Part shown: one piece after another, positions 143-39,775 of the stretch
Layout: the number at the start of each line of letters is the position of its first letter
Numbering within the stretch: the first letter of the stretch is position 1
Assembly: GCA_963727715.1 (NCBI GenBank)
Contig: CAVSGX010000005.1
Span: 50,672 to 114,671 of the forward strand
Source of the DNA: an uncultured bacterium
GTDB taxonomy: Bacteria; Patescibacteriota; Minisyncoccia; Phycocordibacterales; DATDWN01
Direction: 5' to 3'
DNA length: 64,000 nt
Translations under genes and position numbers: made by a program
The notes under the pieces: generated by a model
The model's database searches: none
Seen by the model: the letters and a program-made list of their open reading frames with translations, nothing else
Told to the model about the DNA's origin: nothing

Positions 143-288
143 AGACTCAATGTAATTTTTTAAGAGCCTTTCACAGGAGCTTAGAAAATTAGCGAGGTAT
201 TCCGAACATAATTTTCTTGAGCGACGAGAAGTTCGCTGGGCGAGCCCGCCCAGACAGATTGCTCTGAAAAAATTACATTGAGTCTTGT
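143..288. ncRNA. Candidate structured RNA, copy 1: a 21-bp perfect closing helix around a conserved core (cctttcRcaggagYttagaaaa ... gacgagaagttYgctgg ... ccagacagattgc)
   Basis: A second copy at 18126-18292 keeps the same core and has compensatory changes in three helices. The element sits immediately upstream of the SIMPL gene. Confidence 0.4.
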
Positions 289-301
289 TTTATACACCAC
301 C

Positions 302-1129
302 ATGTATCAATATCTAAATGAAAAACAAAAAAAGCAATTTTTGGGCGCGGTGGTCGGAGTTCTGGGGCTACTGACAATTTTTCTTTTGATTCAATCAATC
401 AATTCCATCAAACAATTTTCCTACATTGGCCACGACTTGAATTCAACTAATGTTATCACCGTGACCGGCGAAGGTTTCGTTTTGGCTGTGCCAGACACTG
501 TCACCTTTTTCTACTCTGTAATGGAGAAAGATAAAACGATTCCAGACGCCCAAAACAAAGTCAATCAAAAAAGCAACGATATTATCAATGCCCTGAAATC
601 TTTGGGTATTGCCGATGCGGATATTCAGACGACCGATTATAGTTCGTACCCGACATATGAACAATCTACGGGGTGCCCAGTCCCTCTTGGTGTTAATTCT
701 GAAACTGCAAACTATCTTTGTCCTCCAATCAAACAGATCTTGACCGGCTATGAAGTTAACCAAACGGTGACAGTCAAAGTACGCAAGACTGCTGACGCCG
801 GCGCTGCGCTGACCAAAGTTGGAGAACTTGGAGCGACAAACATAAGCGGGCTTTCTTTCATAGTGGATAATTTGGAAGCGGTGAAAGCACAAGCTCGCGA
901 CAAAGCTATCGCCGATGCCAAAGCCAAAGCTGCTGTCCTGGCCAAATCTCTGGGTGTAAAAATGACCAAAATCATTAATTTCTACGAAAATGGCAATCAA
1001 CCGATTTATTCACAGGGTGTTGACATGCTTTCGACCAAAGCTACGAATGTCCCGACTGTCGCGCCGAATCTTCCGGTGGGCCAAAACAAAATAACTTCGG
1101 ATGTCAGCATCACATACGAACTGCAATAA
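302..1129 (+). CDS. SIMPL-domain (DUF541, 26 kDa periplasmic immunogenic protein-like) protein
   Basis: The six-frame track gives 278..1129; the ATG at 302 is preferred because 278 lies inside the upstream RNA helix. N-terminal TM/signal segment; overall similarity to the SIMPL/YggE family. Confidence 0.5.
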   Translation: MYQYLNEKQKKQFLGAVVGVLGLLTIFLLIQSINSIKQFSYIGHDLNSTNVITVTGEGFVLAVPDTVTFFYSVMEKDKTIPDAQNKVNQKSNDIINALKSLGIADADIQTTDYSSYPTYEQSTGCPVPLGVNSETANYLCPPIKQILTGYEVNQTVTVKVRKTADAGAALTKVGELGATNISGLSFIVDNLEAVKAQARDKAIADAKAKAAVLAKSLGVKMTKIINFYENGNQPIYSQGVDMLSTKATNVPTVAPNLPVGQNKITSDVSITYELQ

Positions 1130-1166
1130 AGAATTTGACTTTTTGTTGTAAAGGAGTATTATGATG

Positions 1167-1190
1167 GGGAATTCCCCTCAGGGGTTTTTT
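1167..1190 (+). terminator. Rho-independent terminator (ggggaattcccctcagggg followed by a T-run)
   Basis: GC-rich hairpin followed by TTTTTT, directly after the SIMPL stop codon. Confidence 0.5.
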
Positions 1191-1202
1191 AATAGATTAA
1201 AA

Positions 1203-1276
1203 AGTAATGAGTAATAAGTAAAGAGTAAAAAATATAAAAACTTTTACATTTTACTTTTTACATCTTACTTCTTACC
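1203..1276. repeat. Hairpin repeat family, copy 1 (gtaagaagtaa-type imperfect palindrome ending in ttacttcttac)
   Basis: Related copies at 14051-14125 and 20568-20642. Confidence 0.5.
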
Positions 1277-1280
1277 AATT

Positions 1281-1460
1281 ATGTCACTCATCACATACAT
1301 CAAAGATACGCAGGGAGAGTTGAAACACGTCAACTGGCCATCCAGACGGCAGGCGGTGATTTTTTCCGTAATTGTCGTTTTGATTTCCATTTTTGTTTCC
1401 TTCTATCTCGGATTTTTTGATTATATTTTTCATCTGATTTTGCAAAAGTTTGTTTTGTAA
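1281..1460 (+). CDS. secE: Preprotein translocase subunit SecE (59 aa, below the six-frame track's 60-aa cutoff)
   Basis: Translates to ...ELKHVNWPSRRQAVIFSVIVVLISIFVSFYLGFFD..., a conserved SecE motif plus a single TM helix. Sits in the usual position upstream of nusG-rplK. Confidence 0.7.
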   Translation: MSLITYIKDTQGELKHVNWPSRRQAVIFSVIVVLISIFVSFYLGFFDYIFHLILQKFVL

Positions 1461-1484
1461 ATTATTTATCTTTAAAAATTAGCC

Positions 1485-2030
1485 ATGTCAAAACAACAAA
1501 TCTCCGAAGGTAGAAATTGGTATGCCATCCACACCTACGCCGGCTATGAAAATGCCGTGATGCGCAATTTAAAACAGCGCATTGAATCTTTGGGCATGGA
1601 AGATAAAATTTTTGATGTTATCGTGCCGACTGAGAAAAAAATAAAAATCAAAGGAGGCAAGCGGGTGGAAGAAGAAGAAAAAATTTACCCCGGCTACGTT
1701 TTGGTGGATATGATTGTGACCGAGGAATCTTGGTATGTCGTTCGCAACACTCCACGAGTCACCGGTTTTGTCGGCTCTGGCATCTATCCGGTCAAAATTG
1801 ACAAAAAAGAAATTGAAGAACTTTTCGCCAGAATGAATGCGCACACCGTCAAACACAAAATAGACTTGGCCAAAAACGATTCGGTGGTCATTGTTGACGG
1901 GCCGTTCAAAGATTTGGAAGGTAAAGTTTCGGAGTTGGATGAAGAACGCGGTAAAGTCAAAGTCTTGGTGGCTATGTTTGGTCGCGAAACACCGGTGGAG
2001 CTGGATTTCTTACAAGTAAAAAGAATTTGA
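1485..2030 (+). CDS. nusG: Transcription termination/antitermination factor NusG
   Basis: NGN domain (WYAIHTYAGYEN) plus a C-terminal KOW motif; secE-nusG-rplK synteny. Confidence 0.9.
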   Translation: MSKQQISEGRNWYAIHTYAGYENAVMRNLKQRIESLGMEDKIFDVIVPTEKKIKIKGGKRVEEEEKIYPGYVLVDMIVTEESWYVVRNTPRVTGFVGSGIYPVKIDKKEIEELFARMNAHTVKHKIDLAKNDSVVIVDGPFKDLEGKVSELDEERGKVKVLVAMFGRETPVELDFLQVKRI

Positions 2031-2055
2031 AAGTTTTTCAAATTTAATATATAGT
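2027..2055 (+). promoter_or_regulatory. Candidate sigma70-type promoter (TTGAAA, 17-nt spacer, TATAGT) upstream of rplK
   Basis: Hexamers read directly from the sequence. Confidence 0.35.
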
Positions 2056-2133
2056 ACCGATTCTCGCACTTCTCGGGAAAACACAGGCTAAAACATTTTG
2101 ATTACAAAATATTCGCCTAAATAAAACAAAAGA

Positions 2134-2556
2134 ATGGCAAAAAAAGTTACAAAAAAATTAAAACTAGTGGCCCCGGCCGGTAAAATTACCCCGGCTCCGC
2201 CTTATGGCCCAGCTTTAGGCCAGGCCGGCATCAACATCGGCGAGTTTGTTAAACAATTCAACGATGCCACGGCCAAAATGGCAGGCGATCTTGTGCCTGT
2301 GGAAATTTCCGTTTATGAAGATCGCACTTTTTCTTTTGTTTTGAAAACTCCGCCGGCTTCCAATCTAATTTTAAAAGCTCTCGGTAAAGAAAAAGGCAGT
2401 GGCAAAAACACTGTTTCCAAAATCGGCACGCTCTCAAAAGCCCAACTGCGCGAAATCGCCGAAAAGAAAATGCCAGATCTCAACGCCAATGATATTGACG
2501 TAGCCATGAAAATCATCGCCGGCTCGGCTAGGAGCATGGGTGTTGAAGTGAAATAA
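2134..2556 (+). CDS. rplK: 50S ribosomal protein L11
   Basis: Conserved L11 sequence ([17 protein letters not shown]...). Confidence 0.95.
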
Positions 2557-2584
2557 TAAGTCTCAAATATATAAATAAAAAATC

Positions 2585-2607
2585 CGACCGCGAGGCCGGT
2601 TTTTTTG
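2585..2607 (+). terminator. Rho-independent terminator after rplK
   Basis: ccgaccgcgaggccgg hairpin followed by a T7 run. No rplA follows. Confidence 0.45.
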
Positions 2608-2678
2608 ACACACCAAAAAAATCTGTGAAGTGTTTTTTTGATTAAAAATGTGCTACTAATTGTTACAGAGAGGATAAA

Positions 2679-3032
2679 ATGATTCTAGTCGCGCATATAC
2701 CTTATTTGGAGATGAGACATTTAAAGTGGTTTGCTAAATATCAGCAAGCGCCACTTTTTCTAATACCGGAAGACATAATCTCGGATTTTTTAGCATCTAA
2801 TCTGGACACTGACGCTCTACCGGTTGAAATAATGGAAAAGATTCTTTTGGGGTTGGATTGTCCTCCTTCGGTGAGAAGTGTTGAGATCCTCGATGTCGAA
2901 AAAATCCCTAAAGTCTCTGGCGATTCCGCTTCTAGTCAAACTTATATTTTCCCGGATGAACCTGTGTCTCGTTTTGTGGTGGAGAAATATTTCACTGGCA
3001 TAAAAGGAAGAGTTCTTTTTGAGAAAATCTGA
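2679..3032 (+). CDS. Hypothetical protein
   Basis: ORF only. Confidence 0.3.
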   Translation: MILVAHIPYLEMRHLKWFAKYQQAPLFLIPEDIISDFLASNLDTDALPVEIMEKILLGLDCPPSVRSVEILDVEKIPKVSGDSASSQTYIFPDEPVSRFVVEKYFTGIKGRVLFEKI

Positions 3033-3111
3033 CTGGTCGCAGAGCATCGATGATTTGTCGTTGCTCTTTTCCTTTTTACTTAATTGTGTTAGTCTGGTGG
3101 TAGAGGAAATC

Positions 3112-4209
3112 ATGGTTCTTTCACAACAGTCTCTAAAGAAAATCATGTTGGGTGTCAACCCAATGATTATTTGTTCGGAAGATTTTTCAGACAAATGTAT
3201 TCAACCGGCAAGTGTAGACATACCGCTTTCAAATCGCTGTTTCCGAGTCTCGGTCAGTGCCCTGCCTAACAACGGACATACGATGACCGAACTCTTGAAC
3301 CGTTTTAAGATGTATGACTTCGAGCTTAAGCACGAAGGAGGTTTGCTCGAAAAGGGCATGACATATGTTTTGCCACTTTCAATGAATCTGTCTCTGGGCC
3401 AGCAATTTCGGGCATTGTTTTCGCCAAAAAGTACAACAGGTAGAAACGATGTCTTCGCCAGAGTCATCACAGAATCTGGCAAGACATTTGATCTGACCGA
3501 ATTTGGTTATCAAGGGAAGCTGTATCTGGAAGTGACACCACTGTCTTTTCACTGCACTGTCTACCCATTTGAGTCTTTGACTCAAATGAGATTGTCTACT
3601 GCTAGTGACAATCGTCTTTCCAGTGAGGAACTTGCTATTCTCCATTCGCAATATGGTATTGTCAGAAATCAAAATGGTGATGTGGTGGGGGCAACCATTG
3701 GGGGCGATTCTCTTTATTTGCATTTGGATTTGAGCAACGGAGCTCAAACCGCAGGTTATGAGTCTCTAAAAAATCCGGAAGGATGCGTCCATCTCGGGAG
3801 CAAAGAAGTTGATACTAAGGAAGAATTTTGGAGACGAATCAGACCGACCTCTCATGGCGATTTGATACTCTATCCGGATTCTTTCTATCTATTGTCGACT
3901 CGCGAAAGGATTGTCATACCACCGAACGTCTGCGCTACCATGCAGGAATACTCGGTCGGTATGGGAGAGTTTCGTAGTCACTATGCCGGATTCTTCGACA
4001 ATGGTTTTGGTGGTGAAAATGGCACCCAGGGTGTTCTGGAGTTTCGTTCTCGGGATTTGCCGGTCAGGTTTTGCGATGGCCAGCAGATTTGTCGTCTGGT
4101 TTTCTATAAAACTGATGAGATTCCGGAAAAGTTATATGGGAAAGGTTCACATTACACCGGTTCTGGCCCAAGATTGGCCAAGAACTTCATAAATTATTTG
4201 GAATGGTAA
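3112..4209 (+). CDS. Long-form dCTP deaminase-like protein (DCD / dUTPase superfamily)
   Basis: IQPASVDIPL motif typical of dCTP deaminase; length about 365 aa. Start chosen at the first in-frame Met after the upstream stop. Confidence 0.45.
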   Translation: MVLSQQSLKKIMLGVNPMIICSEDFSDKCIQPASVDIPLSNRCFRVSVSALPNNGHTMTELLNRFKMYDFELKHEGGLLEKGMTYVLPLSMNLSLGQQFRALFSPKSTTGRNDVFARVITESGKTFDLTEFGYQGKLYLEVTPLSFHCTVYPFESLTQMRLSTASDNRLSSEELAILHSQYGIVRNQNGDVVGATIGGDSLYLHLDLSNGAQTAGYESLKNPEGCVHLGSKEVDTKEEFWRRIRPTSHGDLILYPDSFYLLSTRERIVIPPNVCATMQEYSVGMGEFRSHYAGFFDNGFGGENGTQGVLEFRSRDLPVRFCDGQQICRLVFYKTDEIPEKLYGKGSHYTGSGPRLAKNFINYLEW

Positions 4210-4249
4210 AACAAAATCCAGTCGCCTGTGTGACTGGATGTTTTTTTGA

Positions 4250-5608
4250 CTAATTTTTCATGATGATGTCTTGGGTGCCACGACGTACATCAAAACGATT
4301 TGGCTCTGGGTCAAGATGGAGAATCAGACCATCTCTACCAAATCGCATTTTTAACACATCTGCCATTTGAAAAGCTCGTTCTCGCAGTGTCGGATGAACG
4401 AATCGAGTACCGCGGAGTTCCACTAAATAAACTAAAGCGTGTAAATCACCAGTCACACGGTTTGTGGTGTTGAATCCCATACCAGTGTAGTATTGTTTGA
4501 TATCTTTTGTTGTTGGCAAGTTGTCTATGAGGACGACTTGTTCATTAATAAAAGATTTCATTTCTCCACGTAAACCTTCTCCAAGTTCGGATAAGTACCA
4601 CGGATGGAATCCGTATTTGGTGGATAGCAGTGGCATTTGTTGAGTCACGGCTCTGTGTCTTTGAATGTCGCGGAAAGAGCCAAAATCCAAAAAGAATTCA
4701 AAAGTTACATTACCACACTCTTTTATCTTTTTCGGCAACTCTGTCTTTGCCGGCCTGCTTCCCATCGCATTTTTGTATTCACGGAGTAGCGCTAAGTTGA
4801 CGTTATCAAAAAAAAGAAAATCTTCCCTCAAATCTGAATCAAAATAGTATCCCCTCATCATTTCCTTGACGTATTCTTCTGTTGCAGGGTACCTTTTGCT
4901 GGAGAAAGAACTCGGGTACTTTTCAATCAAAGCACTTTCCACTGCTTTAGCCACTTCACGCACTTCTTCAAGTGGATGATGGCGGAGCCAGAGAAGCTCA
5001 TCGGCAAATTGACGCAAATTCATATGCCAAGTCAGGTCAGTTGTCGCACCGGCCGGCAAGAAACTGCGCATAATGTCAAAAGCTCTAGCATTGATTGCCT
5101 TTTGATATACTACTTCATCCTCGCCTTTATTTATCGGAAAGCGAGACTTAAGGCTGATTTGTAACCAATCAAGACCATGAAGATAGGCCGTCCTCCACCT
5201 TTCTTGAATCTTTTCACCATCAGCTGTGCCGAGAGGATTCAGGAAAGTTTGTCTGGAGAAATCAATAAACCGAGTTGATGATTCCTGGCCGTTATAAAGT
5301 GGCCAGTCTTGAACTGCTTTCGGTACAAACATAGACACGCCTTCAATAATGACCGTAGCATTACCACAGTCACCAATAGATTTGTGTCCGTAACCTATAT
5401 AGAACTTTTCCATGAATTTTTTTGCCCCGAATTCGATCAGGGTTTTCATATGTTCAAAGAATCCACCAACAGAACGAGACTTCATGGCTTGTACCATAGC
5501 CAACTCTTCCGGTCCCAAAACGGCGCCGGTGTCTACCACAATAACTTGCCCACCGTTTCTGAGCGGACGATGAATGTGTTTCAAAGAACTTATGGAAATT
5601 ATGTCCAT
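4250..5608 (-). CDS. ThyX (Thy1)-like flavin-dependent thymidylate synthase homolog with a non-canonical active-site motif and a roughly 190-aa C-terminal extension
   Basis: GYGHKSIGDCGNATVII resembles the ThyX GHETPFEH region. W.hN.R...F...LR...E.R resembles the ThyX C-terminal helix. An ESSTRF segment aligns to ThyX SGRY, but WPL replaces the RHR triad. Confidence 0.4.
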   Translation of the reverse strand: MDIISISSLKHIHRPLRNGGQVIVVDTGAVLGPEELAMVQAMKSRSVGGFFEHMKTLIEFGAKKFMEKFYIGYGHKSIGDCGNATVIIEGVSMFVPKAVQDWPLYNGQESSTRFIDFSRQTFLNPLGTADGEKIQERWRTAYLHGLDWLQISLKSRFPINKGEDEVVYQKAINARAFDIMRSFLPAGATTDLTWHMNLRQFADELLWLRHHPLEEVREVAKAVESALIEKYPSSFSSKRYPATEEYVKEMMRGYYFDSDLREDFLFFDNVNLALLREYKNAMGSRPAKTELPKKIKECGNVTFEFFLDFGSFRDIQRHRAVTQQMPLLSTKYGFHPWYLSELGEGLRGEMKSFINEQVVLIDNLPTTKDIKQYYTGMGFNTTNRVTGDLHALVYLVELRGTRFVHPTLRERAFQMADVLKMRFGRDGLILHLDPEPNRFDVRRGTQDIIMKN

Positions 5609-5697
5609 AGTTACCTCTACGATTAGGATACGTTTTATTTTTACAAAGTCAATTGACTTTTTTAGACAAAATCGCTATTCTGGCGAAGGAGGTTTTC

Positions 5698-6318
5698 ATG
5701 AGAGGTAAGTTCATTGTGATTGAGGGTGGGGATTGCTCCGGGAAAAGTACCTTTATGCGTTTTTTGATGGAGAAGCACCCGGCACCACAGTTTTGTTATA
5801 CAAACGAACCTGGTGGGAATCCATATGGGATGAAGATCCGGTATCTTCTTTTAAATGAGGAAGGTGCAGAGGAATCAGATAACTCAACTAAGTTCCATTT
5901 ATATTGGGCTTCGAAGGTTGAAAATTTTAGAAAAGTCATATTTCCACATCTTGATAAGGGGATAACGGTTGTGACTGACAGGTTTGAAGGTTCAACCTTT
6001 GCCTACCAAGTTTCTGAAGACCATAGGCTGGAAAATCTCTTCTGGCAAACACGTGAAGCTTGTTTGCGTCGCGTCGTTCCCTTCTACATCCATTTTGATG
6101 TTGATGTTGAAACTCAGATAGCTCGGGCGAAAGCAAGGATCGGCGAGCAGAATTACTTTGATGCCAGGGGCATCGAATATCGCCAGAAAATTTGTCGGGC
6201 TTATCGAAGGTTTTTCGATGACAAGAGAATTAAGTCTCGCCGGGTTGATTCCAGTCTTCCCAAAGACGAGATGCTATCATCGGCCTACGATGTGTTTAAA
6301 GAAATAGTCGGTTTATAA
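5698..6318 (+). CDS. Thymidylate/dNMP kinase family P-loop kinase
   Basis: FIVIEGGDCSGKST Walker A motif with tmk-like spacing. An AGGAGG Shine-Dalgarno sequence lies upstream of the ATG at 5698. Confidence 0.55.
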   Translation: MRGKFIVIEGGDCSGKSTFMRFLMEKHPAPQFCYTNEPGGNPYGMKIRYLLLNEEGAEESDNSTKFHLYWASKVENFRKVIFPHLDKGITVVTDRFEGSTFAYQVSEDHRLENLFWQTREACLRRVVPFYIHFDVDVETQIARAKARIGEQNYFDARGIEYRQKICRAYRRFFDDKRIKSRRVDSSLPKDEMLSSAYDVFKEIVGL

Positions 6319-6320
6319 AG

Positions 6321-6353
6321 ACTTGGCGCGAAACTTGCACCAAGTTATTTTTT
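6321..6353 (+). terminator. Hairpin (acttgg...ccaagt) followed by a T-run
   Basis: Inverted repeat followed by TTTTTT. Confidence 0.4.
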
Positions 6354-6390
6354 ACTTCAAAAAATGTCGTGTCAATGATATAGTTGTCAT

Positions 6391-8133: not shown

Positions 8134-8174
8134 AAATTTTTTGAAAAAAATCGCAGAAATGCTAGTATGTAAGA

Positions 8175-11100: not shown

Positions 11101-11690
11101 TTCTGGCTGAGGAAATCTTTCAAGATTTGCGTTTTTCATCGGATGCCGAAAGTGTTCATTTGGAAAATTGGTCTGATATGTCAAAAATAAAATCCGATGC
11201 CGAACTGATTGAAAAAATGATTTATGTCAGAAGTGTCGTGACTTCGGCTCTGGAATTGCGCCAGAAAGCCGGCATCAAAGTTCGCCAGCCACTCTCGAGT
11301 TTAAAAATCAAAAATCAAAAATCAAAATTGGAAGATGAATTTGTCGATTTAATAAAAGATGAAATTAATGTAAAAGAAATAATTTTTGATAAAAATTTGG
11401 CGATGGATTTGGAATTGGACACGGATTTGACCAAAGAATTGAAAGAAGAAGGACTCTCTCGCGAAATTATTCGGGCTATTCAGGATGTCCGCAAAAAAGA
11501 AAAGCTTAATCCAAACAAACTTGTCTCGCTCCGTATTTCCACTGACGACTTTTTGAAAAATATTTTAGAATCAAGCAAAAAAACCATTCTTTCGGCGGTT
11601 TTGGCAAAAGAAATTTCTTATTCTGCTGAAAATCAGATTCATAATGTTGACATTGAAAATCATCAGCTTTCCGTTTCTGTCATACTTTGA
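8175..11690 (+). CDS. ileS: Isoleucine--tRNA ligase with an inserted histidine-phosphatase (PGAM-like) domain
   Basis: PHYGHLLG (HIGH), WGWDCHGLPVE, KMTKS, and a CPCG zinc knuckle. An insert of about 180 aa (nt 9735-10275) carries RHGQS, SPFMRTKETA and SHGAPL motifs. Confidence 0.9.
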   Translation: MKEEEKNVKSEIAEKTKPSLSSVARSNEVEFREEQILKFWQDNKIFEKSLAKPAPEGDFVFYDGPPFATGLPHYGHLLGSTVKDLFPRYKTMRGFKVRRRWGWDCHGLPVENIVEKKLGLKHKKDIEAIGIEKFNEECRAQVLTYVHDWKKYIDRLGRWVDFDNSYKTMDTSYTESVWWALSQIDKKEMLYEGRKVLLYCPRCETPLSKAEIAMDNSYKNVTEEAVTLKFKLKPEQKFGKYQTKDTDYILAWTTTPWTLPANVALAVGEDISYTALRIKNKTELYILASNLVQKVFAGKEIEIAHDNISGKDLLGLEYEPLYDLPAVRATGKRAWYIAPADFVTTEDGTGVVHTAVIYGEEDYQLGVKIGLPMLPLLLPNGNYNNDAPEFLRGIYIKTAENLIKKDLEDRGLLFAKAPNTHSYPHCYRCGTPLIYNALSSWFIDIQKIKKEMLAKNKNINWVPEHLKHGRFQDIMESAPDWNISRNRFWASPLPIWKCQSCQKIKIVGSIQELKESTQKSGNKYFLMRHGQSQSNANGRIISCKKENKDPLTEKGREEVLETTKKLTKEKIDLIIASPFMRTKETAQIIADKIGINQDKIICDDRLGEIFCGDHDGEPWTELNLGKETPGPETMQDVHIRVMEFLYETDAKYSDQNILIISHGAPLDLLHLGAQGLSIKDIVERYPDNLFHNAELRTCDFTPLPHNKNFEIDLHRPYIDEIKFDCPCGATMKRIPEVIDCWVESGSMPFAEYNYPFADKKEFEKRTPGDFVAEYIAQTRTWFYYMHAISVALFGHEPFKNVITTGTILAGDGDKMTKSKGNFADPLVLMNLYGADALRYYLMTSVLMQAEDVNFQDDGVKEVYQRMLNILRNVLSFYKMYKTDFAETKESKNVLDRWILSRLKELHTEVTENLEKYDTIRAGRPIRNFVDDLSTWYLRRSRDRFKSESIEERKSVSQTMHFVLIELSKIMAPFTPFLAEEIFQDLRFSSDAESVHLENWSDMSKIKSDAELIEKMIYVRSVVTSALELRQKAGIKVRQPLSSLKIKNQKSKLEDEFVDLIKDEINVKEIIFDKNLAMDLELDTDLTKELKEEGLSREIIRAIQDVRKKEKLNPNKLVSLRISTDDFLKNILESSKKTILSAVLAKEISYSAENQIHNVDIENHQLSVSVIL

Positions 11691-12274
11691 TGTCCTATCA
11701 TATTTACACCACTGACGGCATAATTCTGAAACGTTTGAATTTTGGCGAAGCCAACATTTTGCTTTTTATTTTAACCGATGAATTTGGGTTGATTAGCGCT
11801 TCCGCCCAAGCGGCCAGAGAATCTTTTTCCAAACTGAACTCGGCCCTGCAAGAATACAGTTTGATTTCTGTTTCCTGCGTCAAAGCTAAAAATGGTTGGA
11901 AAATTACAAACGCCACAGCAAAGGAAAATTTCTTTTTTGACTATTCGTTACCTGTTCAAAAATTTGTCTCTAGAGTCTCGACTGTTTTGGTCAGGATGAT
12001 ACCCGGCGAAGAAAAGCACCGGGAATTGTTTTCCGTTATTTACAGCAGTTTTGAATTTTTGAAAAATATTTCCGAGAAAGATATCCCCAATTTTGAAATT
12101 TTGACAATGTTACGCATTTTGTATTATCTCGGTTATGTTGAAAAGTCCAAACAAACCGAAAAATTTTTGCAAAATGATAATAAATGGGGTAGAGAAATTA
12201 TAGATGAAATATCGGGAGTTAAATCAAGTTTAATCGGCCTGATAAACAAGGGCTTTGAAGAAAGCCAGTTATAA
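11687..12274 (+). CDS. recO: RecO-like DNA repair protein
   Basis: RecO-type N-terminal OB fold (GIILKRLNFGEANILLFILTDEFGLISASAQAARES). Confidence 0.5.
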   Translation: MMSYHIYTTDGIILKRLNFGEANILLFILTDEFGLISASAQAARESFSKLNSALQEYSLISVSCVKAKNGWKITNATAKENFFFDYSLPVQKFVSRVSTVLVRMIPGEEKHRELFSVIYSSFEFLKNISEKDIPNFEILTMLRILYYLGYVEKSKQTEKFLQNDNKWGREIIDEISGVKSSLIGLINKGFEESQL

Positions 12275-12285
12275 TCAGGTTAGTA

Positions 12286-12314
12286 TTGACATTGTTTGCT
12301 ATTTTGTATAGTAT
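12286..12314 (+). promoter_or_regulatory. Candidate promoter (TTGACA, 17-nt spacer, TAGTAT) for the ribosomal protein operon
   Basis: Near-consensus hexamers about 245 nt upstream of rpsS. Confidence 0.4.
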
Positions 12315-12556
12315 GGTCAGCAATTAAGGACAAAGTCCTTAAACATTTTTGTTTGCGGTATTTGAAAAAATTACCACTAACATTGTGGTTTTTGTTTTGA
12401 GTTTTTTGAAATGACCACAGCACCATTTTTTGATTCTTTAATTCATCGAGTCAGTGTGACTAATTAATTAAACAAAATTAAATTAATCATAAAATAAAGT
12501 GAAAATGGAGCTGGGTCATTATTTTCTAAAACTCATTTCATTCGTTAAGAAAATAT

Positions 12557-12907
12557 ATGACACGATCATCAAAAAAAGGTCCATATGTCGACGAGCGTTT
12601 GCTCAAGAAAATTGAGGGCAAAAAACCAGTAGAAACCGGGGTTATTAAGACGTGGTCTAGGGCCTGTGTTATTTCACCCGAAATGGTTGGTTTTAATTTC
12701 GGTGTGCATAATGGCAAGACTCACATTGAAGTTTTGATTTCCGAAGATATGGTTGGCCACAGACTCGGCGAATTTTCACCCACAAAGAAATTCTTGAAAC
12801 ACGGAGGCAAGATGCAGAAGGAGTTGGAACAGAAGAAAAAGGAGGCTGAGCTAGCAGCTGCTCAAGCGGCTAAAACCACAACCGATTCCAAAGCCGGTAA
12901 AAAATAA
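12557..12907 (+). CDS. rpsS: 30S ribosomal protein S19 (with a C-terminal K/E-rich extension)
   Basis: Conserved S19 sequence. Confidence 0.95.
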
Positions 12908-12915
12908 TAAATAAT

Positions 12916-13338
12916 ATGGCAACAGCTAAAGCAACATTATCCAATTTCCGGCAATCTCCTCGCAAAATGCGCGGGGTGGCCGATCTTGTCCGTGGCAAAA
13001 AAGTTTCTGAAGCCTTGGTTTATTTGGATTTTGTTGGCAAAAGAGCGGCTTTACCCATCAAAAATTTGCTAAATTCAGCTTTAGCCAACGCCAAAAATTT
13101 GCAAATTGAATCGGAAAATCTGGTTATCAAGAGCATTACCGTAAATGCCGGTAAAATTTTGAAACGACACCAGCCGGTTAGCCGTGGCAGAGCACACCCG
13201 ATCCACAAACGCACCAGTCACATCACAATTGAATTGGCTGAACCGAAAGAAAATCCAAAACCGAAAAAAGTGGTAAAAGAAAAAGTTGGAAAAATAGAAG
13301 TTAAAAAAATTGGAAAAGCAAAAAAACCAAAAAAATAA
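12916..13338 (+). CDS. rplV: 50S ribosomal protein L22
   Basis: Conserved L22 sequence plus a K-rich tail. Confidence 0.95.
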   Translation: MATAKATLSNFRQSPRKMRGVADLVRGKKVSEALVYLDFVGKRAALPIKNLLNSALANAKNLQIESENLVIKSITVNAGKILKRHQPVSRGRAHPIHKRTSHITIELAEPKENPKPKKVVKEKVGKIEVKKIGKAKKPKK

Positions 13339-13345
13339 TTAATTT

Positions 13346-14056
13346 ATGACCCACACCGTCCATCCATATTCACATAGGCTCGGTATCATCAGAGACTGGA
13401 AATCTCGCTGGTTTGGTGTTGGTAAGCAGTATCGAGATTTTCTGAAAAGCGATGTTCTGTTGCGTGGATATTTGGAAAAGAAACTTCACGGTCAATACGT
13501 TAGCAACATTGAGATAGAAAGGAATCAAAAATCTCTGCGGATTATAATTGAGACTTCAAGACCGGGTATGATTATCGGTCGCAGTGGGGAAGGGGCGACA
13601 AAACTGCGTCAAGATGTTTTGAATTTTATAAAGAAAAACAAATTGTCGGCCGAAGGTTCGAATTCTTCTGCCAAAACCGGTCAAACTTCGCAGAAAGAAG
13701 TTTCAAGCGATGTCAAAATAGATATCAAGGAAATTAAATCGCCGGAATCGAATTCAGCCATCGTGGCCCAGATGATCGCCGACGGGTTGGAGAAAAGAAT
13801 GCCATTCCGTCGAGTAGTCAAACAAATGTTGGAAAAAGTTATGGCCAACAGAGATGTTTTAGGAGTAAAAATCGAACTGTCTGGCCGTCTCGGTGGGGCC
13901 ACAATGTCTCGCCGTGAAAAAATCAAACGCGGGCGCATTCCACTTCAGACCTTTCGGGCCGATGTTGATTTTAACAAACATGAAGCCAGATTGCCGTATG
14001 GCAGGATAGGAATAAAAGTTTGGATTTACAAAGGCGAAATATTTAACAAGAAGTAA
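13346..14056 (+). CDS. rpsC: 30S ribosomal protein S3
   Basis: KH domain and S3 C-terminal domain. Confidence 0.95.
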   Translation: MTHTVHPYSHRLGIIRDWKSRWFGVGKQYRDFLKSDVLLRGYLEKKLHGQYVSNIEIERNQKSLRIIIETSRPGMIIGRSGEGATKLRQDVLNFIKKNKLSAEGSNSSAKTGQTSQKEVSSDVKIDIKEIKSPESNSAIVAQMIADGLEKRMPFRRVVKQMLEKVMANRDVLGVKIELSGRLGGATMSRREKIKRGRIPLQTFRADVDFNKHEARLPYGRIGIKVWIYKGEIFNKK

Positions 14057-14125
14057 AAAGTAAGATGTAATAAGTAAGAAATACAAAAACGCATTCTTTA
14101 CATCTTACTTCTTACTCATTACTCA
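14051..14125. repeat. Hairpin repeat family, copy 2 (in the rpsC-rplP spacer)
   Basis: agtaagatgtaa / ttacatcttact 12-bp stem with the ttacttcttac ending. Confidence 0.5.
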
Positions 14126-14134
14126 TTAAAAACC

Positions 14135-14551
14135 ATGTTAGTCCCCAAAAAAGTAAAATACAGAAAATGGCAAACTATGCGTCGAAACCCAAAAAGAGTT
14201 GGTGTGACTTCTCGTGGCGCCACCATTTCTTTCGGTTCTTTCGCTCTGAAAGCCACCGGTCCGGCTCGCATCAAATCAAACCAGATTGAGGCAGCCAGAA
14301 AAGTTCTGTCGCGCGCTTCCGGCAAGACCGGCAAGGTTTGGATTCGCATTTTTCCGGATATGCCTTATACTCAAAAGCCGGCCGAAGTTAAACTTGGCAA
14401 AGGCAAAGGTGATTTGGCTGGGTATGTCGCGCCGGTTCTGGCAGGTCGCATTTTATTTGAAGTGGACGGTGTTTCGGAGGCAGTAGCCAGAGAAGCTTTG
14501 CGCAAAGCCGGGACAAAGTTGCCGGTCAAAACAAAAATCATTGCCAGATAA
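14135..14551 (+). CDS. rplP: 50S ribosomal protein L16
   Basis: Conserved sequence. Confidence 0.95.
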   Translation: MLVPKKVKYRKWQTMRRNPKRVGVTSRGATISFGSFALKATGPARIKSNQIEAARKVLSRASGKTGKVWIRIFPDMPYTQKPAEVKLGKGKGDLAGYVAPVLAGRILFEVDGVSEAVAREALRKAGTKLPVKTKIIAR

Positions 14552-14563
14552 ATTTCAGATTTT

Positions 14564-14779
14564 ATGAAAACAAATTTTTCAAACAAAACAGAAAAGGAAT
14601 TGCAAACACTTTTGGCCGAAAAACAAATGGCTCTGCGAGCTTTCAGATTCAATGTGGCTGGTAGTAATGTTCGCAATGTCAAAGAGGGGAGAACAATACG
14701 AAAGGACATTGCTCGCATCAAAACTATTTTCTCGGCCGGCAAAATTAAATCAAAACTCCCAACCAAAACCAAAAAATAA
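14564..14779 (+). CDS. rpmC: 50S ribosomal protein L29
   Basis: Conserved sequence. Confidence 0.85.
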   Translation: MKTNFSNKTEKELQTLLAEKQMALRAFRFNVAGSNVRNVKEGRTIRKDIARIKTIFSAGKIKSKLPTKTKK

Positions 14780-14785
14780 AATACT

Positions 14786-15046
14786 ATGAATGCTAAAATA
14801 ACAAAAAAAGAGGAGGTTAAAAAAGCAGGCAAGCGATTTTCTGGTGTGGTTGTTTCCGACAAAATGAAGGACACGGTGGTGGTCAGCGTTAGCCGTTTTG
14901 TCAAACACCCGAAATATGGCAAATTTATAAAACGAGACAAAAATTTTAAAGCTCACGACGCCGGCAACAGCAAAAAAATCGGCGACAAAGTGACAATAGA
15001 AGAATGCCGACCGATTTCCAAAGATAAACATTTCAAAGTAATTTAA
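14786..15046 (+). CDS. rpsQ: 30S ribosomal protein S17
   Basis: Conserved sequence. Confidence 0.9.
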
Positions 15047-15050
15047 TTTT

Positions 15051-15434
15051 ATGATTCAACCACGATCCATTGTTAAAATAGCTGACAACTCCGGAGCTCA
15101 GATCGGACGCATTTTCAAAGTGCTCGGCTCGTCCAAAAAACGCTACGCTTCGCTTGGCGAAATGGTTGTTTTGTCTGTCCAAAAAGCTGCGCCACGAAAA
15201 GCAACCAAGAAAAAAGATATTGTCTACGGCGTGGTTGTCCGACAAAAAGCTCCTTACAGACGCAGGGATGGTAGTTACATTCGCTTTGATGAGAATGCCG
15301 TCGTTTTGGTCATCAAGGATAGGAAAAAGAAAGACGTTTCTCCGGCGGTCGGTCGCGTTTTCGGACCGATTCCGCGTGAAGTCGGCGAGGCGGGGTATCA
15401 AAAGATTATTTCCCTTGCCCCTGAAGTGGTTTAA
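15051..15434 (+). CDS. rplN: 50S ribosomal protein L14
   Basis: Conserved sequence. Confidence 0.95.
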   Translation: MIQPRSIVKIADNSGAQIGRIFKVLGSSKKRYASLGEMVVLSVQKAAPRKATKKKDIVYGVVVRQKAPYRRRDGSYIRFDENAVVLVIKDRKKKDVSPAVGRVFGPIPREVGEAGYQKIISLAPEVV

Positions 15435-15449
15435 TTTCAATTCAATATT

Positions 15450-15671
15450 ATGAAAATCAAAAAAGGAGACAATGTCATAATCATAGCCGGAAAAGACAAA
15501 GGCAAGAAAGGAACTGTGGTTAAAGCTCTGCCAAAAGAAGACAAAGTGGTTGTTTCCGGCGTGAATGTCGCCAAAAAGCATGCTCGTCCGCGCAAAACCG
15601 GCGAAAAAGGCCAGACTGTTGAAAAAACAATGCCCGTGCATGTATCAAACGTGAAGAAAATAGAAAAATAA
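15450..15671 (+). CDS. rplX: 50S ribosomal protein L24
   Basis: KOW motif. Confidence 0.9.
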
Positions 15672-15672
15672 A

Positions 15673-16206
15673 ATGAAATTCACCAAAGAAAAAATCAAAG
15701 AATCTTATGACGCTCTGAAATCAGAGTTTGGTTACAAAAACAGAATGCAAGCGCCGAAAGTAGAAAAGGTTGTCGTCTCGGCCGGCGTTGGGTCATTCAA
15801 GGATAAGAAAAAAATTGAGCTGGCTCTCGATCGCTTAGCCAAGATCACCGGGCAGAAGCCGGTGCAAAAAGGGGCCAAGCAGTCCGTGGCTTCTTTCAAG
15901 GTGCGCGAAGGCGACATTGTCGGGCTACAGGTGACACTGCGTGGCGAGAGAATGTACGATTTTCTCAATCGTCTGGTCAACATCGCCCTGCCTCGAACAA
16001 AAGACTTTCGTGGCATTTCGCGCGAGGCCGTTGATGCTATGGGCAACTACACTTTAGGAATAAGAGAGCACACCATTTTCCCGGAAACAGGCGACGAGGA
16101 ACTGAAAGATGTTTTTGGTCTCTCTGTCACTATTGTCACTTCCACTCGCAACAAAAAAGAAACATTAGCTTTTCTGACTTACTTGGGTTTTCCATTTAAG
16201 AAATAA
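15673..16206 (+). CDS. rplE: 50S ribosomal protein L5
   Basis: Conserved sequence. Confidence 0.95.
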   Translation: MKFTKEKIKESYDALKSEFGYKNRMQAPKVEKVVVSAGVGSFKDKKKIELALDRLAKITGQKPVQKGAKQSVASFKVREGDIVGLQVTLRGERMYDFLNRLVNIALPRTKDFRGISREAVDAMGNYTLGIREHTIFPETGDEELKDVFGLSVTIVTSTRNKKETLAFLTYLGFPFKK

Positions 16207-16384
16207 ATCCACAGGACTTGCGCAAAAATATTTTCCAGAGCAACCTCAAAAACTCCAGCGAGTTTTCTCGGCTGTCCTCGGCTCGGATTTGTCAAGAGCC
16301 CTCGCTTTGCTCGGGTCGTTGACAAAACCAACTCCTCGCCTGCGGAGTCTCTGAAAAACATTTTTTTGCAAGCCCCCCAAAAAT

Positions 16385-16407
16385 CGCCTAACAAGGCGGT
16401 TTTTTTA
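16385..16407 (+). terminator. Hairpin cgcctaacaaggcg followed by T7
   Basis: Read from the sequence. Confidence 0.45.
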
Positions 16408-16422
16408 CGCTAGCACAAACAC

Positions 16423-16452
16423 TTGACTTTTTGGTGTAAGGTGTGATATAAT
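16423..16452 (+). promoter_or_regulatory. Near-consensus promoter (TTGACT, 18-nt spacer, TATAAT), now directly abutting the IS left end
   Basis: Hexamers read directly from the sequence. Confidence 0.4.
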
Positions 16453-16467
16453 ACAGGTAGTGGTAAA

Positions 16468-17495
16468 TTCCTCCAATTACCCCTCAAGTAGGACAGAACT
16501 AATGTTTGAATAATAACTCATTGGCGCGCGGAAGCCAATCACTTCTCTCGGTCGGTTGTTTAGGAAGGAATGTATTTCTTGCAATTCTTCCTCAGTGACT
16601 GACTCAATATCTCTTCGTTTAGGCACAAAACATCTGATCCATCTGTTGGTGTTTTCCACCAGACCTTTTTCCCAAGAATGGTATGGATGTGTAAAATAGA
16701 TTGGCACTTGCAGGAGAGTTTCCAACTCTTTCCAACAGGTGAATGCAATATCGTTGTCTGTGGTGATGCTCTTCAATTCAACACCATGGAACAGACGGGA
16801 AAGCGCGGCACGAATAGTGTCGCGTTTTCTGTTGGGCAGTTTCCTGACCCATGTTCTTTTGGCTTGCCAATCCACAGCAACCAAAAGTACCCACGAACTG
16901 TCTTTGGAAACGATGAAATCGAGCTCAATGTGTCCTAGACCTTTTCTCTCCGGTCTGACATCAATATACTTCCTGCCATCCTGAATGTGCTTCCAATGAT
17001 TTCGTTTTCTCCCACCCTTGTGATTGTTCCAACCCCAAAAAAGCAGGTGGTTTAGACCTCTCGACTCGGCAAATTTGTATATGGCTTTGGCCGAGCAGAT
17101 GATACCCATTTCACATTCAAGATACCCGCTAATCTGCTTCGGCGACCAATGATACGGCTTGGTTAATCGTTCCACCACGAATCGACAGAGAAACGGGTCA
17201 AGCGCCACTTTCAGACACTGCTGTTTGGCTCGCCATCTTTTCATTGAAACTTTCTGCTTGGCTTTTTCCGCTTCATACACCCCATTAACACTGTGTTTTT
17301 GTATTTCTCTGCTCACAGTGTTGACACTCCGACCGAGAAATTCGGCAATTTTGCGAATGGCCGAACCGGCGCAATACATCTTTTCAATACAAAACCTCTC
17401 TTCAAAAGACAAATGATGATATTTGTTTTTCATATGACAATTAAAATTAATTTTCGACTAATGCATTAATTCTAACTGTCCTACTTCAAAGGTGG
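16468..17495 (-). mobile_element. IS30-family insertion sequence (about 1.03 kb) with imperfect terminal inverted repeats
   Basis: Terminal inverted repeats tcaagtaggacagaactaatg (16476-16500) and cattaattctaactgtcctacttca (17462-17490) flank the transposase ORF. Confidence 0.65.
16477..17433 (-). CDS. IS30-family transposase
   Basis: N-terminal HTH (AIRKIAEFLGRSVNTVSREI) plus an integrase-core DDE region. Confidence 0.85.
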   Translation of the reverse strand: MKNKYHHLSFEERFCIEKMYCAGSAIRKIAEFLGRSVNTVSREIQKHSVNGVYEAEKAKQKVSMKRWRAKQQCLKVALDPFLCRFVVERLTKPYHWSPKQISGYLECEMGIICSAKAIYKFAESRGLNHLLFWGWNNHKGGRKRNHWKHIQDGRKYIDVRPERKGLGHIELDFIVSKDSSWVLLVAVDWQAKRTWVRKLPNRKRDTIRAALSRLFHGVELKSITTDNDIAFTCWKELETLLQVPIYFTHPYHSWEKGLVENTNRWIRCFVPKRRDIESVTEEELQEIHSFLNNRPREVIGFRAPMSYYSNISSVLLEG

Positions 17496-17566
17496 CTAGG
17501 GGATTGGGGTACCGAAATTCTCCAATCGTCCAGCGTGACGTTAAACTGTTCATTTGGAGTAAGGAA

Positions 17567-18028
17567 ATGCACTCGATCAATTTAAGTTTGGTAGTTGTGA
17601 TCTCTGTTCTTATTTTGGTGCTTCGCGGGTGCGCCAAAGAGATCTTCTTCACGGTATATGGAAAGAAAATCATTCGCAAAGAGCGAACCGAACACAAAGT
17701 AGCTGACACTCAACGCAACATCAGCAACCGCATCTACAATGCTCTGTGCAGGGCAGCGGAGGAAAATTACTCCAAGCTTGTTTCTGTGAACAAAAAGAAT
17801 TTTGAAAATGGGGATTATTGCGTCTACATAATAAATGTAGAATGGGTCTGTATGGCCGGGGAGTTCCCTATGTGTTCTGTGGATATTTGTAAAGTCGGAG
17901 ACGAGATTTCGGTCACTGTAGTCAACGACATGGATCATACATACCTTAAATATCACAAGCCGGATGAAGCCACACTCACTCTTTTGATGAATGGATTAAA
18001 TGGCCAGGTGTCCAAATACTACCTCTGA
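17567..18028 (+). CDS. Hypothetical Cys-rich putative lipoprotein
   Basis: Signal-like N-terminus (LVVVISVLILVLRGC). The track ORF runs 17492..18028; an internal Met is preferred as the start. Confidence 0.3.
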   Translation: MHSINLSLVVVISVLILVLRGCAKEIFFTVYGKKIIRKERTEHKVADTQRNISNRIYNALCRAAEENYSKLVSVNKKNFENGDYCVYIINVEWVCMAGEFPMCSVDICKVGDEISVTVVNDMDHTYLKYHKPDEATLTLLMNGLNGQVSKYYL

Positions 18029-18125
18029 TCATCTCTCCACCAGACACATTCTCTTCAGCTGGTGGCTCCCTCGCGGGGTCGCCGGCTTTTCACATGCAAA
18101 AAATTTTTAAATTAGCACTAACAAA

Positions 18126-18292
18126 ACCGAACTGGCATATCTTGAGACGGGCCTTTCGCAGGAGTTTAGAAAACAACGACGCAGGCGCGAGTATACGCGC
18201 CGAGAAGATTGTTTTCTTGAATGACGAGAAGTTTGCTGGCAAAGCTTTGCCAGACAGATTGCCCGGTGAGAGATATGCCAGTCTGGATTTGT
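18126..18292. ncRNA. Candidate structured RNA, copy 2 (same core as 143-288, with different but complementary helices)
   Basis: Closing helix ctggcatatct/agatatgccag. P2 helix agaaaacaa/ttgttttct, where copy 1 has agaaaatta/taattttct. P3 helix ctggcaaa/tttgccag, where copy 1 has ctgggcg/cgcccag. Confidence 0.4.
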
Positions 18293-18353
18293 GTTGACAT
18301 TAAGTCACTCTCTTGCTAGTATAAATCGCGAGCTGTAAAGCTCTATTTTTCAA

Positions 18354-39555: not shown

Positions 39556-39565
39556 AGTTTACCCG

Positions 39566-39628: not shown

Positions 39629-39775
39629 TAGGTTTATCCACAGTGGCATATTAGCCAATTTTTTGACTGGCTGTATAATGTAATCACTCGTTTTTAGACA
39701 AACGACAATCTCTCCAAGAGAAGGTCGAAAGCAAATTATAAGAAGTTATTATTAATAGTTTTAAATAAAAATTAT

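Follow-up and report, generated by a model that had tools for sequence, protein, structure and literature searches.

A folded repeat of Patescibacteria with a near-invariant three-way junction, probably a structure-dependent insertion element

Introduction

Patescibacteria, also known as the Candidate Phyla Radiation (CPR), have tiny, gene-dense genomes from which few mobile elements or non-coding RNAs have been described. In a stretch of 64,000 nucleotides of contig CAVSGX010000005.1, from an uncultured bacterium of this group (the whole stretch is hereafter called the window), two segments share an ordered core and are closed by helices whose sequence differs between them. A preliminary description of this DNA took the segments for copies of a structured RNA. 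The question raised by this locus is whether such a repeat is an RNA gene, a leader of the adjacent genes, or something that moves. We found that it is an undescribed folded unit of CPR bacteria, ~150–190 bases long; a literature search by topic and by literal sequence returned no description of it. On balance, both segments are probably copies of a non-coding, structure-dependent, non-autonomous insertion element of Patescibacteria, like the Rickettsia palindromic elements (RPE) or ERIC, the repetitive intergenic consensus of enterobacteria.

Results

Two copies of the element in the window

The core motifs common to positions 137–291 and 18121–18292 of the + strand, searched as degenerate patterns of 23 and 26 bases, occurred exactly twice in the 64-kb window, and the chance expectation from dinucleotide shuffles of the window was 0.00–0.01 matches. 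The predicted fold of copy 1 had an energy of -59.6 kcal/mol (z = -8.05) and that of copy 2 an energy of -74.9 kcal/mol (z = -8.16), with 0 of 200 shuffles as good in either case. The predicted shape of both was a branched core on top of a long closing stem. Sequence inspection and the motif counts agree with the preliminary description that the two segments share an ordered core. The differences that it listed in the closing helix, P2 and P3 proved positionally equivalent in a pairwise alignment, and this equivalence was further upheld in 28 distinct copies. The closing helix (P1) that it reported is real, but was drawn too short: its arms span 137–167/261–291 in copy 1 and 18121–18152/18261–18292 in copy 2. 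Its list of helices also lacked a fourth, short one, the junction helix Pj (UUUC/GAAG). The parts of the two copies are as follows.

137–291, + strand: copy 1, whole element, closing rod P1 plus branched core (31-nt inverted repeat, 97% complementary)
137–167, + strand: copy 1, 5' arm of P1, pairing with 261–291 (inverted repeat, fold)
169–172, + strand: copy 1, junction helix Pj, UUUC pairing with GAAG at 228–231
176–225, + strand: copy 1, P2, with a base helix containing a tandem G.A step, AGAAAAUUA/UAAUUUUCU, and a distal hairpin
197–202, + strand: copy 1, loop GUAUUC of the distal P2 hairpin
236–253, + strand: copy 1, P3 hairpin CUGGGCG-AGCC-CGCCCAG
254–260, + strand: copy 1, joining strand ACAGAUU from P3 to P1 (invariant alignment columns)
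261–291, + strand: copy 1, 3' arm of P1 (inverted repeat)
18121–18292, + strand: copy 2, whole element (inverted repeat 18121–18142/18271–18292 plus inner stem)
18154–18157, + strand: copy 2, Pj, UUUC pairing with GAAG at 18228–18231 (alignment)
18161–18225, + strand: copy 2, P2 with extended distal hairpin GGCGCG-AGUAUA-CGCGCC (fold, alignment)
18236–18253, + strand: copy 2, P3 hairpin CUGGCAA-AGCU-UUGCCAG (fold, alignment)
18254–18260, + strand: copy 2, joining strand ACAGAUU (pairwise and multiple alignment)

The distal P2 arm is ~15–16 nt longer in copy 2 than in copy 1, and the same long form was seen at loci L044 and L060 (L and P numbers are our handles for loci and proteins).

Relatives in other genomes

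A two-block exact pattern was scanned over 185,579 species-representative genomes and matched at 20 places, 11 of which carried the full motif. Eight of nine host metagenome-assembled genomes (MAGs) were labelled as Paceibacterota, Parcubacteria, Minisyncoccia, Saccharibacteria or plain 'bacterium', and the ninth contig was binned as Nitrospira. One MAG held three copies. A looser three-block pattern, run over metagenome contigs, gave 23 further places, 15 of them distinct new copies. From 28 distinct copies (genomes and metagenomes together) we built a covariance model, R1, which scored copy 1 at 140.8 bits (E = 7e-35) and copy 2 at 120.7 bits (E = 1.5e-29). These were the only strong scores in the window; weak ones at 40286–40424 and 16221–16368 (- strand) belong to other hairpins. 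R1 added two full-size copies that lack the exact patterns (L042:472–608 and L048:4113–4249), and also recovered one expanded variant and several mini variants. The further homologues with the same helices, which the preliminary description had proposed to seek with such a model, were therefore found: public collections hold 30 distinct full-size copies, plus the mini and expanded variants. A scan of viral contigs with a 16-base core pattern gave 19 matches, all of them chance matches without the other motifs.

The variants differ mainly in P2. The expanded member (L046:3230–3531, ~300 nt) carries an extra 174-nt multi-branched domain in P2 and a perfect ~40-bp rod; it folds at -148 kcal/mol (z = -12.5), and an ordinary copy lies 600 nt away on the same contig. 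At the other extreme, P2 is reduced to a 7-nt remnant in L076 and L078. The P2 arm is thus dispensable or expandable, and the architecture is modular around a fixed junction. Further weak, intergenic covariance-model matches (14–26 bits) were seen at L077:17779–17993 and 15354–15492, two of which adjoin each other on opposite strands. This suggests that related types are multi-copy in the L077 genome, whose aminopeptidase holds an insert.

A branched fold with covarying arms

P1 is a rod of ~30–40 bp, formed in every copy by complementary arms of 30–40 nt. Many copies have a tandem G.A step in the rod, which also bears an asymmetric, purine-rich internal loop with AGAAAG in the 3' arm. Inward from P1 follow a single C, the 4-bp helix UUUC/GAAG, a 3x2 internal loop GCA/GA and then the long arm P2. 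The base of P2 consists of a G-C pair, a tandem G.A/A.G step and GCUUAGAAAAUAA/UUAUUUUCUUGAGC with one bulged U, and its distal hairpin is capped by GUAUUC. After P2 come the linker UUCG, the P3 hairpin (CUGG-NNN-loop-NNN-CCAG) and the strand ACAGAUU, which leads back into P1. In the predicted structure, P1 closes a three-way junction with P3 and with the 4-bp helix on which P2 is stacked. The joining strands GCA...GA, UUCG and ACAGAUU are near-invariant, with part of ACAGAUU fixed by the search patterns; this last strand reads AUAGAUU in L048b and L076.

The helices of this hand-refined structure were independently recovered by RNAalifold. Across the 28 aligned copies, 93.4% of the pairing cells could pair, as against 37–51% when the partners were slid by 1–3 columns. 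Both sides had changed in 28 of 47 pairs, and none of 500 column shuffles reached any of the observed measures. Changes on both sides affected 15 of the 17 scored pairs of P1 and 10 of the 18 pairs of P2. In P3, 99.5% of the cells pair, and the three inner pairs covary in 12–15 of the 28 copies. Pj is invariant (UUUC/GAAG) in the 28 copies and becomes UUGC/GCAG in L048:4113–4249 and in the L076 type (L076 and L083–85). These covariant variants fix the register of Pj and rule out the alternative UUUCG/CGAGA. In L031, the tandem G.A/A.G step of P2 is swapped for Watson-Crick U-A/C-G pairs.

Some resemblances to known motifs were rejected. A kink-turn reading of the GCA/GA internal loop fails at the positions after the 3-nt bulge, which misfit the G.A/A.G rule of this motif. 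Resemblances to the hairpin ribozyme and to the pC194/phiX174 nick site (CTTGA) were too weak.

Constraint on one strand of the element

In the 28-copy alignment, G-U and U-G pairs outnumbered A-C and C-A combinations by 101 to 12 overall and, in P1 alone, by 37 to 7. Folding energies favoured the element's + strand over its complement in 26 of the 28 copies (mean 8.7 kcal/mol, p = 7e-8). This + strand fold was kept also in L021, where the element is antisense to its host gene. Selection or homogenisation therefore keeps the fold of the element's + strand, whatever the direction of host transcription. A G.T pair is the best-tolerated mismatch in single-stranded DNA too. Because of the excess of G-U over A-C and the greater stability of the + strand, the constraint is placed on one single strand, which fits either RNA or single-stranded DNA. 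A symmetric duplex palindrome does not fit, and the same data argue against purely mechanical correction of the arms. The preliminary proposal of a family held together by selection on its fold was thus sustained, as a conserved, covarying single-strand fold, by the pairing in 28 copies, by RNAalifold and by the strand tests.

Insertion between and within genes

The element is a discrete unit of 150–190 nt that is inserted whole and in either orientation, both between genes and in frame within genes, where it adds extra codons. In L063, an M1 aminopeptidase gene harbours the whole element, including the rod, in frame and at a point that separates the Peptidase_M1 domain from the ERAP1_C domain. 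The site is empty in the close homologues P0004, P0007, P0017, P0019 and P0063, and also in L079 and L080. The empty site reads ...WQIPVSVQFQNWIKVN... in L079, as compared with ...WQIPIMH[49 aa]SADWLKIN... at the filled site of L063. The truB gene of L021 holds an antisense copy that keeps the reading frame; in its product (P0122), TruB is full-length and has 50–55 additional amino acids (aa) after the TDTLD motif.

Inserts in the M1 aminopeptidase were found in L063 and ten other loci, L076–78, L081 and L083–87 among them. Overall, an insert of 28–62 aa was present at one aminopeptidase site in 32 of the 92 homologues that have both anchor motifs, and at least seven sequence types were distinguished. 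Ten in-gene inserts were read as DNA, and all were P1 hairpins of the same architecture or R1 matches, in both orientations. Those of L076 and L083–85 are antisense mini versions (65–66 bits with R1), those of L078, L086 and L087 are in sense orientation with a different P3, and that of L077 is a complete copy adjoining a 3'-arm remnant of another type.

Stretches homologous among L050, L058 and L023 have a boundary near the element, and copies thus mark synteny breaks. The outermost termini ACAAAAUC...GAUUUUGU recur in a subset of the copies, and the arm sequence otherwise differs between subfamilies. The preliminary description had held that covarying arms rule out a MITE (a miniature transposable element with inverted repeats). 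That exclusion has to be withdrawn in view of whole copies in truB and the aminopeptidase with empty homologous sites, the synteny breaks, and the nested or partial copies. A 'landing-pad' arrangement, in which a fixed host hairpin would receive a mobile core, was discarded, since in antisense copies the core and the asymmetric features of P1 are turned round as one.

One Y1 transposase gene was seen, at L080:3567–4274 (- strand; PF01797, IS200/RAYT type, where RAYT stands for REP-associated tyrosine transposase), in a Nomurabacteria-like genome with an empty aminopeptidase site. The 22 kb fetched for L080 contained no copy of the element. With the L080 protein as tblastn query, no Y1 homologue was found in the window or in the element-bearing loci (8–22 kb per genome). 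A link between the element and a Y1 or HUH transposase found no support within these stretches, as this only PF01797 gene lies in an element-free locus.

Genomic context and tests for an RNA gene or leader

Orientation relative to the neighbouring genes was roughly half same and half opposite among ~30 copies. The neighbours were unrelated between loci (transketolase, PfkB, UvrB, ATP synthase subunits, RF-1, GH130, rpsO and others), and no conserved partner gene was found beside the copies in the fetched loci. The SIMPL gene follows copy 1 in the window, and copy 2 lies within a 2.1-kb interruption between rplE and rpsZ, alongside an IS30-family element, an orphan open reading frame (ORF) and another long hairpin. 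The earlier statement that each copy sits upstream of a + strand gene is true of both window copies, but cannot be generalised, as the orientation is mixed across the ~30 copies. A cis-acting leader, which had also been suggested, is contradicted by the unrelated neighbours, the mixed orientation, the copies within ORFs and the position of a sigma-70-like promoter site of rpsZ (TTGACA-17-TAGTAT, 18294–18322), which is downstream of copy 2. Processing of the rod by RNase III, raised in the same place, is possible.

At gathering thresholds, Rfam 15 matched only two tRNAs and one group I intron in the window, all of them elsewhere. A permissive Rfam search with both copies gave only chance-level matches (miRNA precursors, a vimentin 3' untranslated region element and 6S-Flavo at 17 bits). 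The proposed likeness to 6S RNA was not borne out: the best 6S-type score (6S-Flavo, 17.1 bits) compares with a gathering threshold of 85, and the element is multi-copy and intragenic and has a three-way-junction top. Likeness to Y RNA fared no better, with no Y RNA match up to E = 10 in the permissive search. Covariance models of known self-cleaving ribozymes (hammerhead, twister, twister-sister, pistol, hatchet and hepatitis delta virus (HDV)-like) and of group I and II introns matched neither copy. No -10-like hexamer or other promoter-like site was found at a fixed distance upstream of the copies, and a dedicated promoter was rejected on this ground.

A protein-coding reading was also rejected. 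Open frames were only mildly enriched (17% versus 6% in shuffles) and inconsistent between copies, a five-frame chimeric peptide query matched just three proteins in 5.8 billion, and the helices covary in ways that are incompatible with a conserved protein. Gene callers extend P0121 (S15, 130 aa) and P0123 (ATP synthase epsilon, AtpC, 196 aa) into the adjacent copy of the element. The resulting C- or N-terminal extensions, which consist of translated element, are likely annotation artefacts; for S15, they are possibly a real fusion.

Constraint on resident copies and exchange between copies

The inserts of L076/L083–85 and L078/L086/L087 were found through their host protein, so that constraint could be measured without search-pattern bias. 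In L076, L083, L084 and L085, ~100 nt of the element are ~96–100% identical, compared with 66–77% for 300 nt of flanking coding DNA; the differences lie mainly in the outermost helix and are partly compensatory there. In L078, L086 and L087, the flanks are 64–69% identical, and all three share the same junction CUUUCGCAGGCUGUCGAGCCGAGAA, down to the third codon positions. It is followed by GGAG in two of them and by UGAG in L087. Between these three copies, P1 and P3 differ by paired, compensatory substitutions, and the encoded peptide changes with them (DFSAEKY / KNSAEFY / KFLAKNY). Resident copies are thus either under nucleotide-level selection or repeatedly overwritten by homing or gene conversion. 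Exchange between copies occurs, because L050 and L058 form a mosaic with common arms and different P2, and because the near-identical L025 and L030 differ by a clustered multi-base change in an arm that converts an internal loop to perfect pairing.

Other features of the window

A third rod, directly after rplE, is a possible distant and degenerate relative of uncertain membership.

16215–16375, - strand: long rod with a branched top

It folds at -73.7 kcal/mol (z = -7.26) and carries CCGCAGG and CGAGAAAACUCGCUGG, which resemble the core motifs; the R1 match to it (16221–16368, - strand) reached only 14.9 bits, with E = 0.17 over the window.

The compact IS30-family element at 16479–17493 has 18-nt inverted repeats and a transposase gene at 16477–17433 (- strand; NF033563 at 3e-53). 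Its position between rplE and rpsZ interrupts the spc ribosomal-protein operon. A search for relatives of the window genome with its exact S14 protein returned only one contig, 100% identical; this public contig (L082, same organism) ends exactly at the IS30-like inverted repeat. Between the IS30-like element and copy 2 lies the orphan ORF (17492–18028, 178 aa); neither Pfam nor NCBIfam matched it, and none of the fetched loci contained a relative. The GTG with which it begins overlaps the inverted repeat of the insertion sequence (IS), so its true start may be further downstream. A link between this ORF and the folded element was rejected, as it does not recur at the other loci.

A second, unrelated palindromic family has four copies in 3.3 kb (39561–39633, 40283–40427, 41968–42106 and 42671–42809), located between + strand genes. 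Its arms of ~22–30 nt (TTTACCCACACACCAACTTTGGCAT / ATGCCAAAGTTGGTGTCTGGGTTTAC) enclose an A/T-rich centre of 85–95 nt, or 29 nt in the short copy, and the folds range from -40 to -51 kcal/mol. The group I intron match is at 55841–56050 (- strand; RF00028, 55.2 bits, E = 2.8e-11), ~0.8 kb from tRNA-Met (56881–56955) and tRNA-Asp (57009–57084). Immediately upstream of tRNA-Met is a long hairpin (56697–56864, -35.7 kcal/mol) with 20-nt arms and 128 nt between them, dissimilar to the main family. Finally, an identical stretch of at least 61 nt is found at 22385–22445 and 24572–24632, 2.2 kb apart, and holds a perfect 13-bp terminator-like hairpin (AAAAAATTCCACGC...GCGTGGAATTTTT).

Discussion

How the element may work, and what weighs against mobility

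We lean towards a non-autonomous insertion element whose structure is what matters for its spread. The folded + strand, as RNA or single-stranded DNA, would be the form recognised by a mobilising or copy-correcting activity that acts in trans. The invariant junction could serve as the recognition module of the mobilising activity, and the P1 rod would juxtapose the two ends of the element. Resident copies would mostly be passengers, and a rod that is transcribed may, as a side effect, serve as an RNase III site or as a terminator-like block.

Several observations weigh against this preference. No clear target-site duplication separates filled from empty aminopeptidase sites: there is at most an A/T-rich repeat of 3–5 nt in L078 and none clear in L063, with the ends of P1 hard to fix. 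No transposase, reverse transcriptase or HUH enzyme was found beside the copies in the 8–22 kb inspected per genome. A link to the IS30-like element was rejected, as this has unrelated 18-nt inverted repeats of its own (ACCCCTCAAGTAGGACAG) and does not recur at the other loci. Copy number per genome is low (1–3 with the exact core), unlike the bursts of classic MITEs. The in-gene copies were all found through intact predicted proteins, so that frame-breaking copies, which would argue for splicing, were not visible. Much of the core invariance among the 28 aligned copies was imposed by the exact-match search patterns; positions outside these patterns are also almost invariant. Lastly, orthologous copies keep intact cores while their flanks are only 64–79% identical, and such persistence of the core fits a host-beneficial function of the resident copies at least as well as a selfish passenger.

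Alternative explanations

One alternative, which we regard as unlikely but by no means negligible, is that the element is a small RNA gene with a function, whose mobility is incidental, with the rod as its processing stalk (e.g., for RNase III). The ~100-nt three-way-junction core would be released and would act in trans or bind a protein, and its function would keep it conserved. The strand-specific fold and the covariation in every variable helix would suit an RNA gene, as would arms that are expanded or deleted around an invariant junction, which is seen in many functional RNAs. Nucleotide conservation of the orthologous copies exceeds that of the surrounding coding sequence, and some copies lie just 3' of highly expressed genes such as rpsO. 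However, a conserved promoter-like site at fixed distance is missing, about half of the copies are antisense to their neighbours, copies sit within the truB and aminopeptidase reading frames, several copies with differing stems occur per genome, and Rfam gave no match. Context also speaks to the narrower notion that the element acts in cis on the adjacent gene, as a 5' leader, riboswitch, RNase III site or terminator regulating SIMPL and rpsZ. In the window, each copy points the same way as the next gene and is 11–61 nt upstream of it, a U-run follows the rod in many intergenic copies in the manner of a terminator, and several copies come directly after a stop codon. Nevertheless, we give this little credence: the neighbours differ at every locus and the orientation is mixed, the rpsZ promoter-like site is downstream of copy 2, genes contain in-frame copies of either orientation, and a terminator has no need of a branched core with near-invariant joining strands.

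Two further explanations start from the in-gene copies and from the arms. A miniature intron or homing element would have its fold join both junctions, be removed at the RNA level by itself or by a host enzyme, and re-invade the same conserved sites. One aminopeptidase site filled in 32 of 92 homologues by at least seven insert types in both orientations speaks in its favour. The near-identical element of L076/L083–85 between flanks of 66–77% identity is a pattern typical of homing elements, and self-splicing introns occur in CPR genomes, with a group I intron in this very window. Yet all examined in-gene copies keep the host frame open and stop-free, as translated inserts should (all, as noted, found via intact proteins), the antisense copies of L021 and L076 would put the weaker fold into the mRNA, the unit falls far short of the size of group I or II introns and matches no ribozyme family, and most copies are intergenic. 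We therefore hold it to be very unlikely. Hardly probable at all, in our judgement, is a plain DNA palindrome whose arms are made complementary again by a mechanical process (template switching or intramolecular gene conversion), with the covariation as a mutational artefact. The clustered change between L025 and L030 does look templated, and the L050/L058 mosaics have common arms but not a common P2. Templated correction, however, yields perfect Watson-Crick pairing without strand bias, as opposed to the observed 101:12 ratio and the 26 of 28 copies with the better-folding + strand. It also leaves the conserved tandem G.A, an invariant U.G, the asymmetric loop and the near-invariant unpaired strands unexplained, and the short hairpins of P3 and distal P2 covary as well.

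A more speculative idea, which we consider distinctly improbable, is a protein-free, structure-guided homing element of CPR bacteria, in which the three-way junction itself would be active, as a ribozyme or as an RNA or single-stranded DNA cofactor of a host enzyme. Such an element would time and again enter or overwrite the same sites of conserved genes, and would persist since its translation does no harm. If true, it would explain why a single aminopeptidase site is filled in about one-third of the homologues by at least seven insert types and in both orientations, why near-identical cores occur amid ~70% identical flanks, and why the fold of the element's own strand is selected irrespective of host transcription.

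Significance

The non-autonomous insertion element that we favour would extend in-frame 'selfish palindromes' beyond Rickettsia to the other great lineage of reduced, host-dependent bacteria. It would also provide a better-resolved system, in which the branched core is near-invariant, the arms covary, variants range from mini to expanded, and filled as well as empty alleles exist at a natural insertion hot spot. A strand-specific fold that is kept even antisense to a host gene raises the question of a single-stranded intermediate and of the enzyme involved, as it does for RPE and ERIC. For annotation, the element matters as a source of spurious ORFs of 67–83 aa over its copies, of fused extensions (S15, AtpC) and of inserts in real proteins. 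With a covariance model, the annotation of CPR genomes would be freed of such errors, and synteny breakpoints would be flagged.

Comparison with known systems

Four features set the element apart from all the systems compared here: its centre is conserved rather than its ends, its core is branched and modular, its copy number is low, and a single gene site is a hot spot for many types of insert. Like 6S RNA and Y RNA/YrlA, the element has a long closing helix formed by its 5' and 3' ends with an internal loop. It differs from them in its three-way-junction top, which replaces the central bubble or the tRNA-like module, and in being multi-copy, inserted in either orientation and intragenic. With the REPIN/RAYT and IS200/IS605 systems (REPINs being hairpin-forming doublets of repetitive extragenic palindromes) it shares the feature that the fold of one DNA strand matters, rather than the duplex sequence. 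In those systems, hairpins are read by a trans-acting enzyme without target duplication, and a 'peel and paste' of this type would explain strand-specific selection that is independent of transcription. However, no Y1 or HUH gene was found in the window or beside any copy inspected, and no conserved 5' target tetranucleotide like that of IS200/IS605 was established here. The hairpins at the left and right ends of IS608 are alike, whereas P2 and P3 of the present element are dissimilar.

Classic MITEs (Correia/NEMIS, QMITE, IS-derived) resemble the element in being shorter than 500 bp and non-coding and in having terminal inverted repeats; here, such repeats stand at synteny breaks. MITEs give stable stem-loop transcripts, which RNase III may process where the ends pair (PMC10969869). 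Unlike for MITEs, no parent IS with matching ends was found among the inspected loci. The sites compared showed no clear direct-repeat target duplication. The inverted repeats also vary across copies and the centre is most conserved, which is the reverse of a typical MITE.

ERIC, the intergenic repeat unit (IRU) of Enterobacteriaceae, is likewise a hairpin repeat found in either orientation. ERIC copies are imperfect palindromes of ~127 bp in transcribed intergenic regions, in either orientation and occasionally intragenic (PMC10969869). ERIC is a simple hairpin conserved over its whole consensus, whereas here the rod varies between subfamilies and the three-way junction is fixed; the taxon is different as well. 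According to Wilson and Sharp (2006), ERIC copies reportedly evolve with substitutions that preserve the RNA hairpin. We know of no transposase for ERIC.

The RPE (RPE-1 to RPE-10) are, like the present element, stable hairpins of ~150 bp dispersed in the small genomes of host-dependent bacteria. These hairpin repeats often lie in frame in unrelated housekeeping genes as translational fusions (PMC10969869), and the copies in truB and the M1 aminopeptidase correspond to this in-frame insertion into protein-coding genes. The differences concern the phylum, the low copy number and mostly intergenic position here, the branched core with near-invariant joining strands, the strand-specific covariation, the modular loss or expansion of an arm, and the single gene site that is a hot spot for many insert types. 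The element thus appears to work like the RPE, to which we liken it by behaviour rather than by sequence, and we do not file it as a member of that family. Its closest functional analogues would be the RPE, with ERIC also close.

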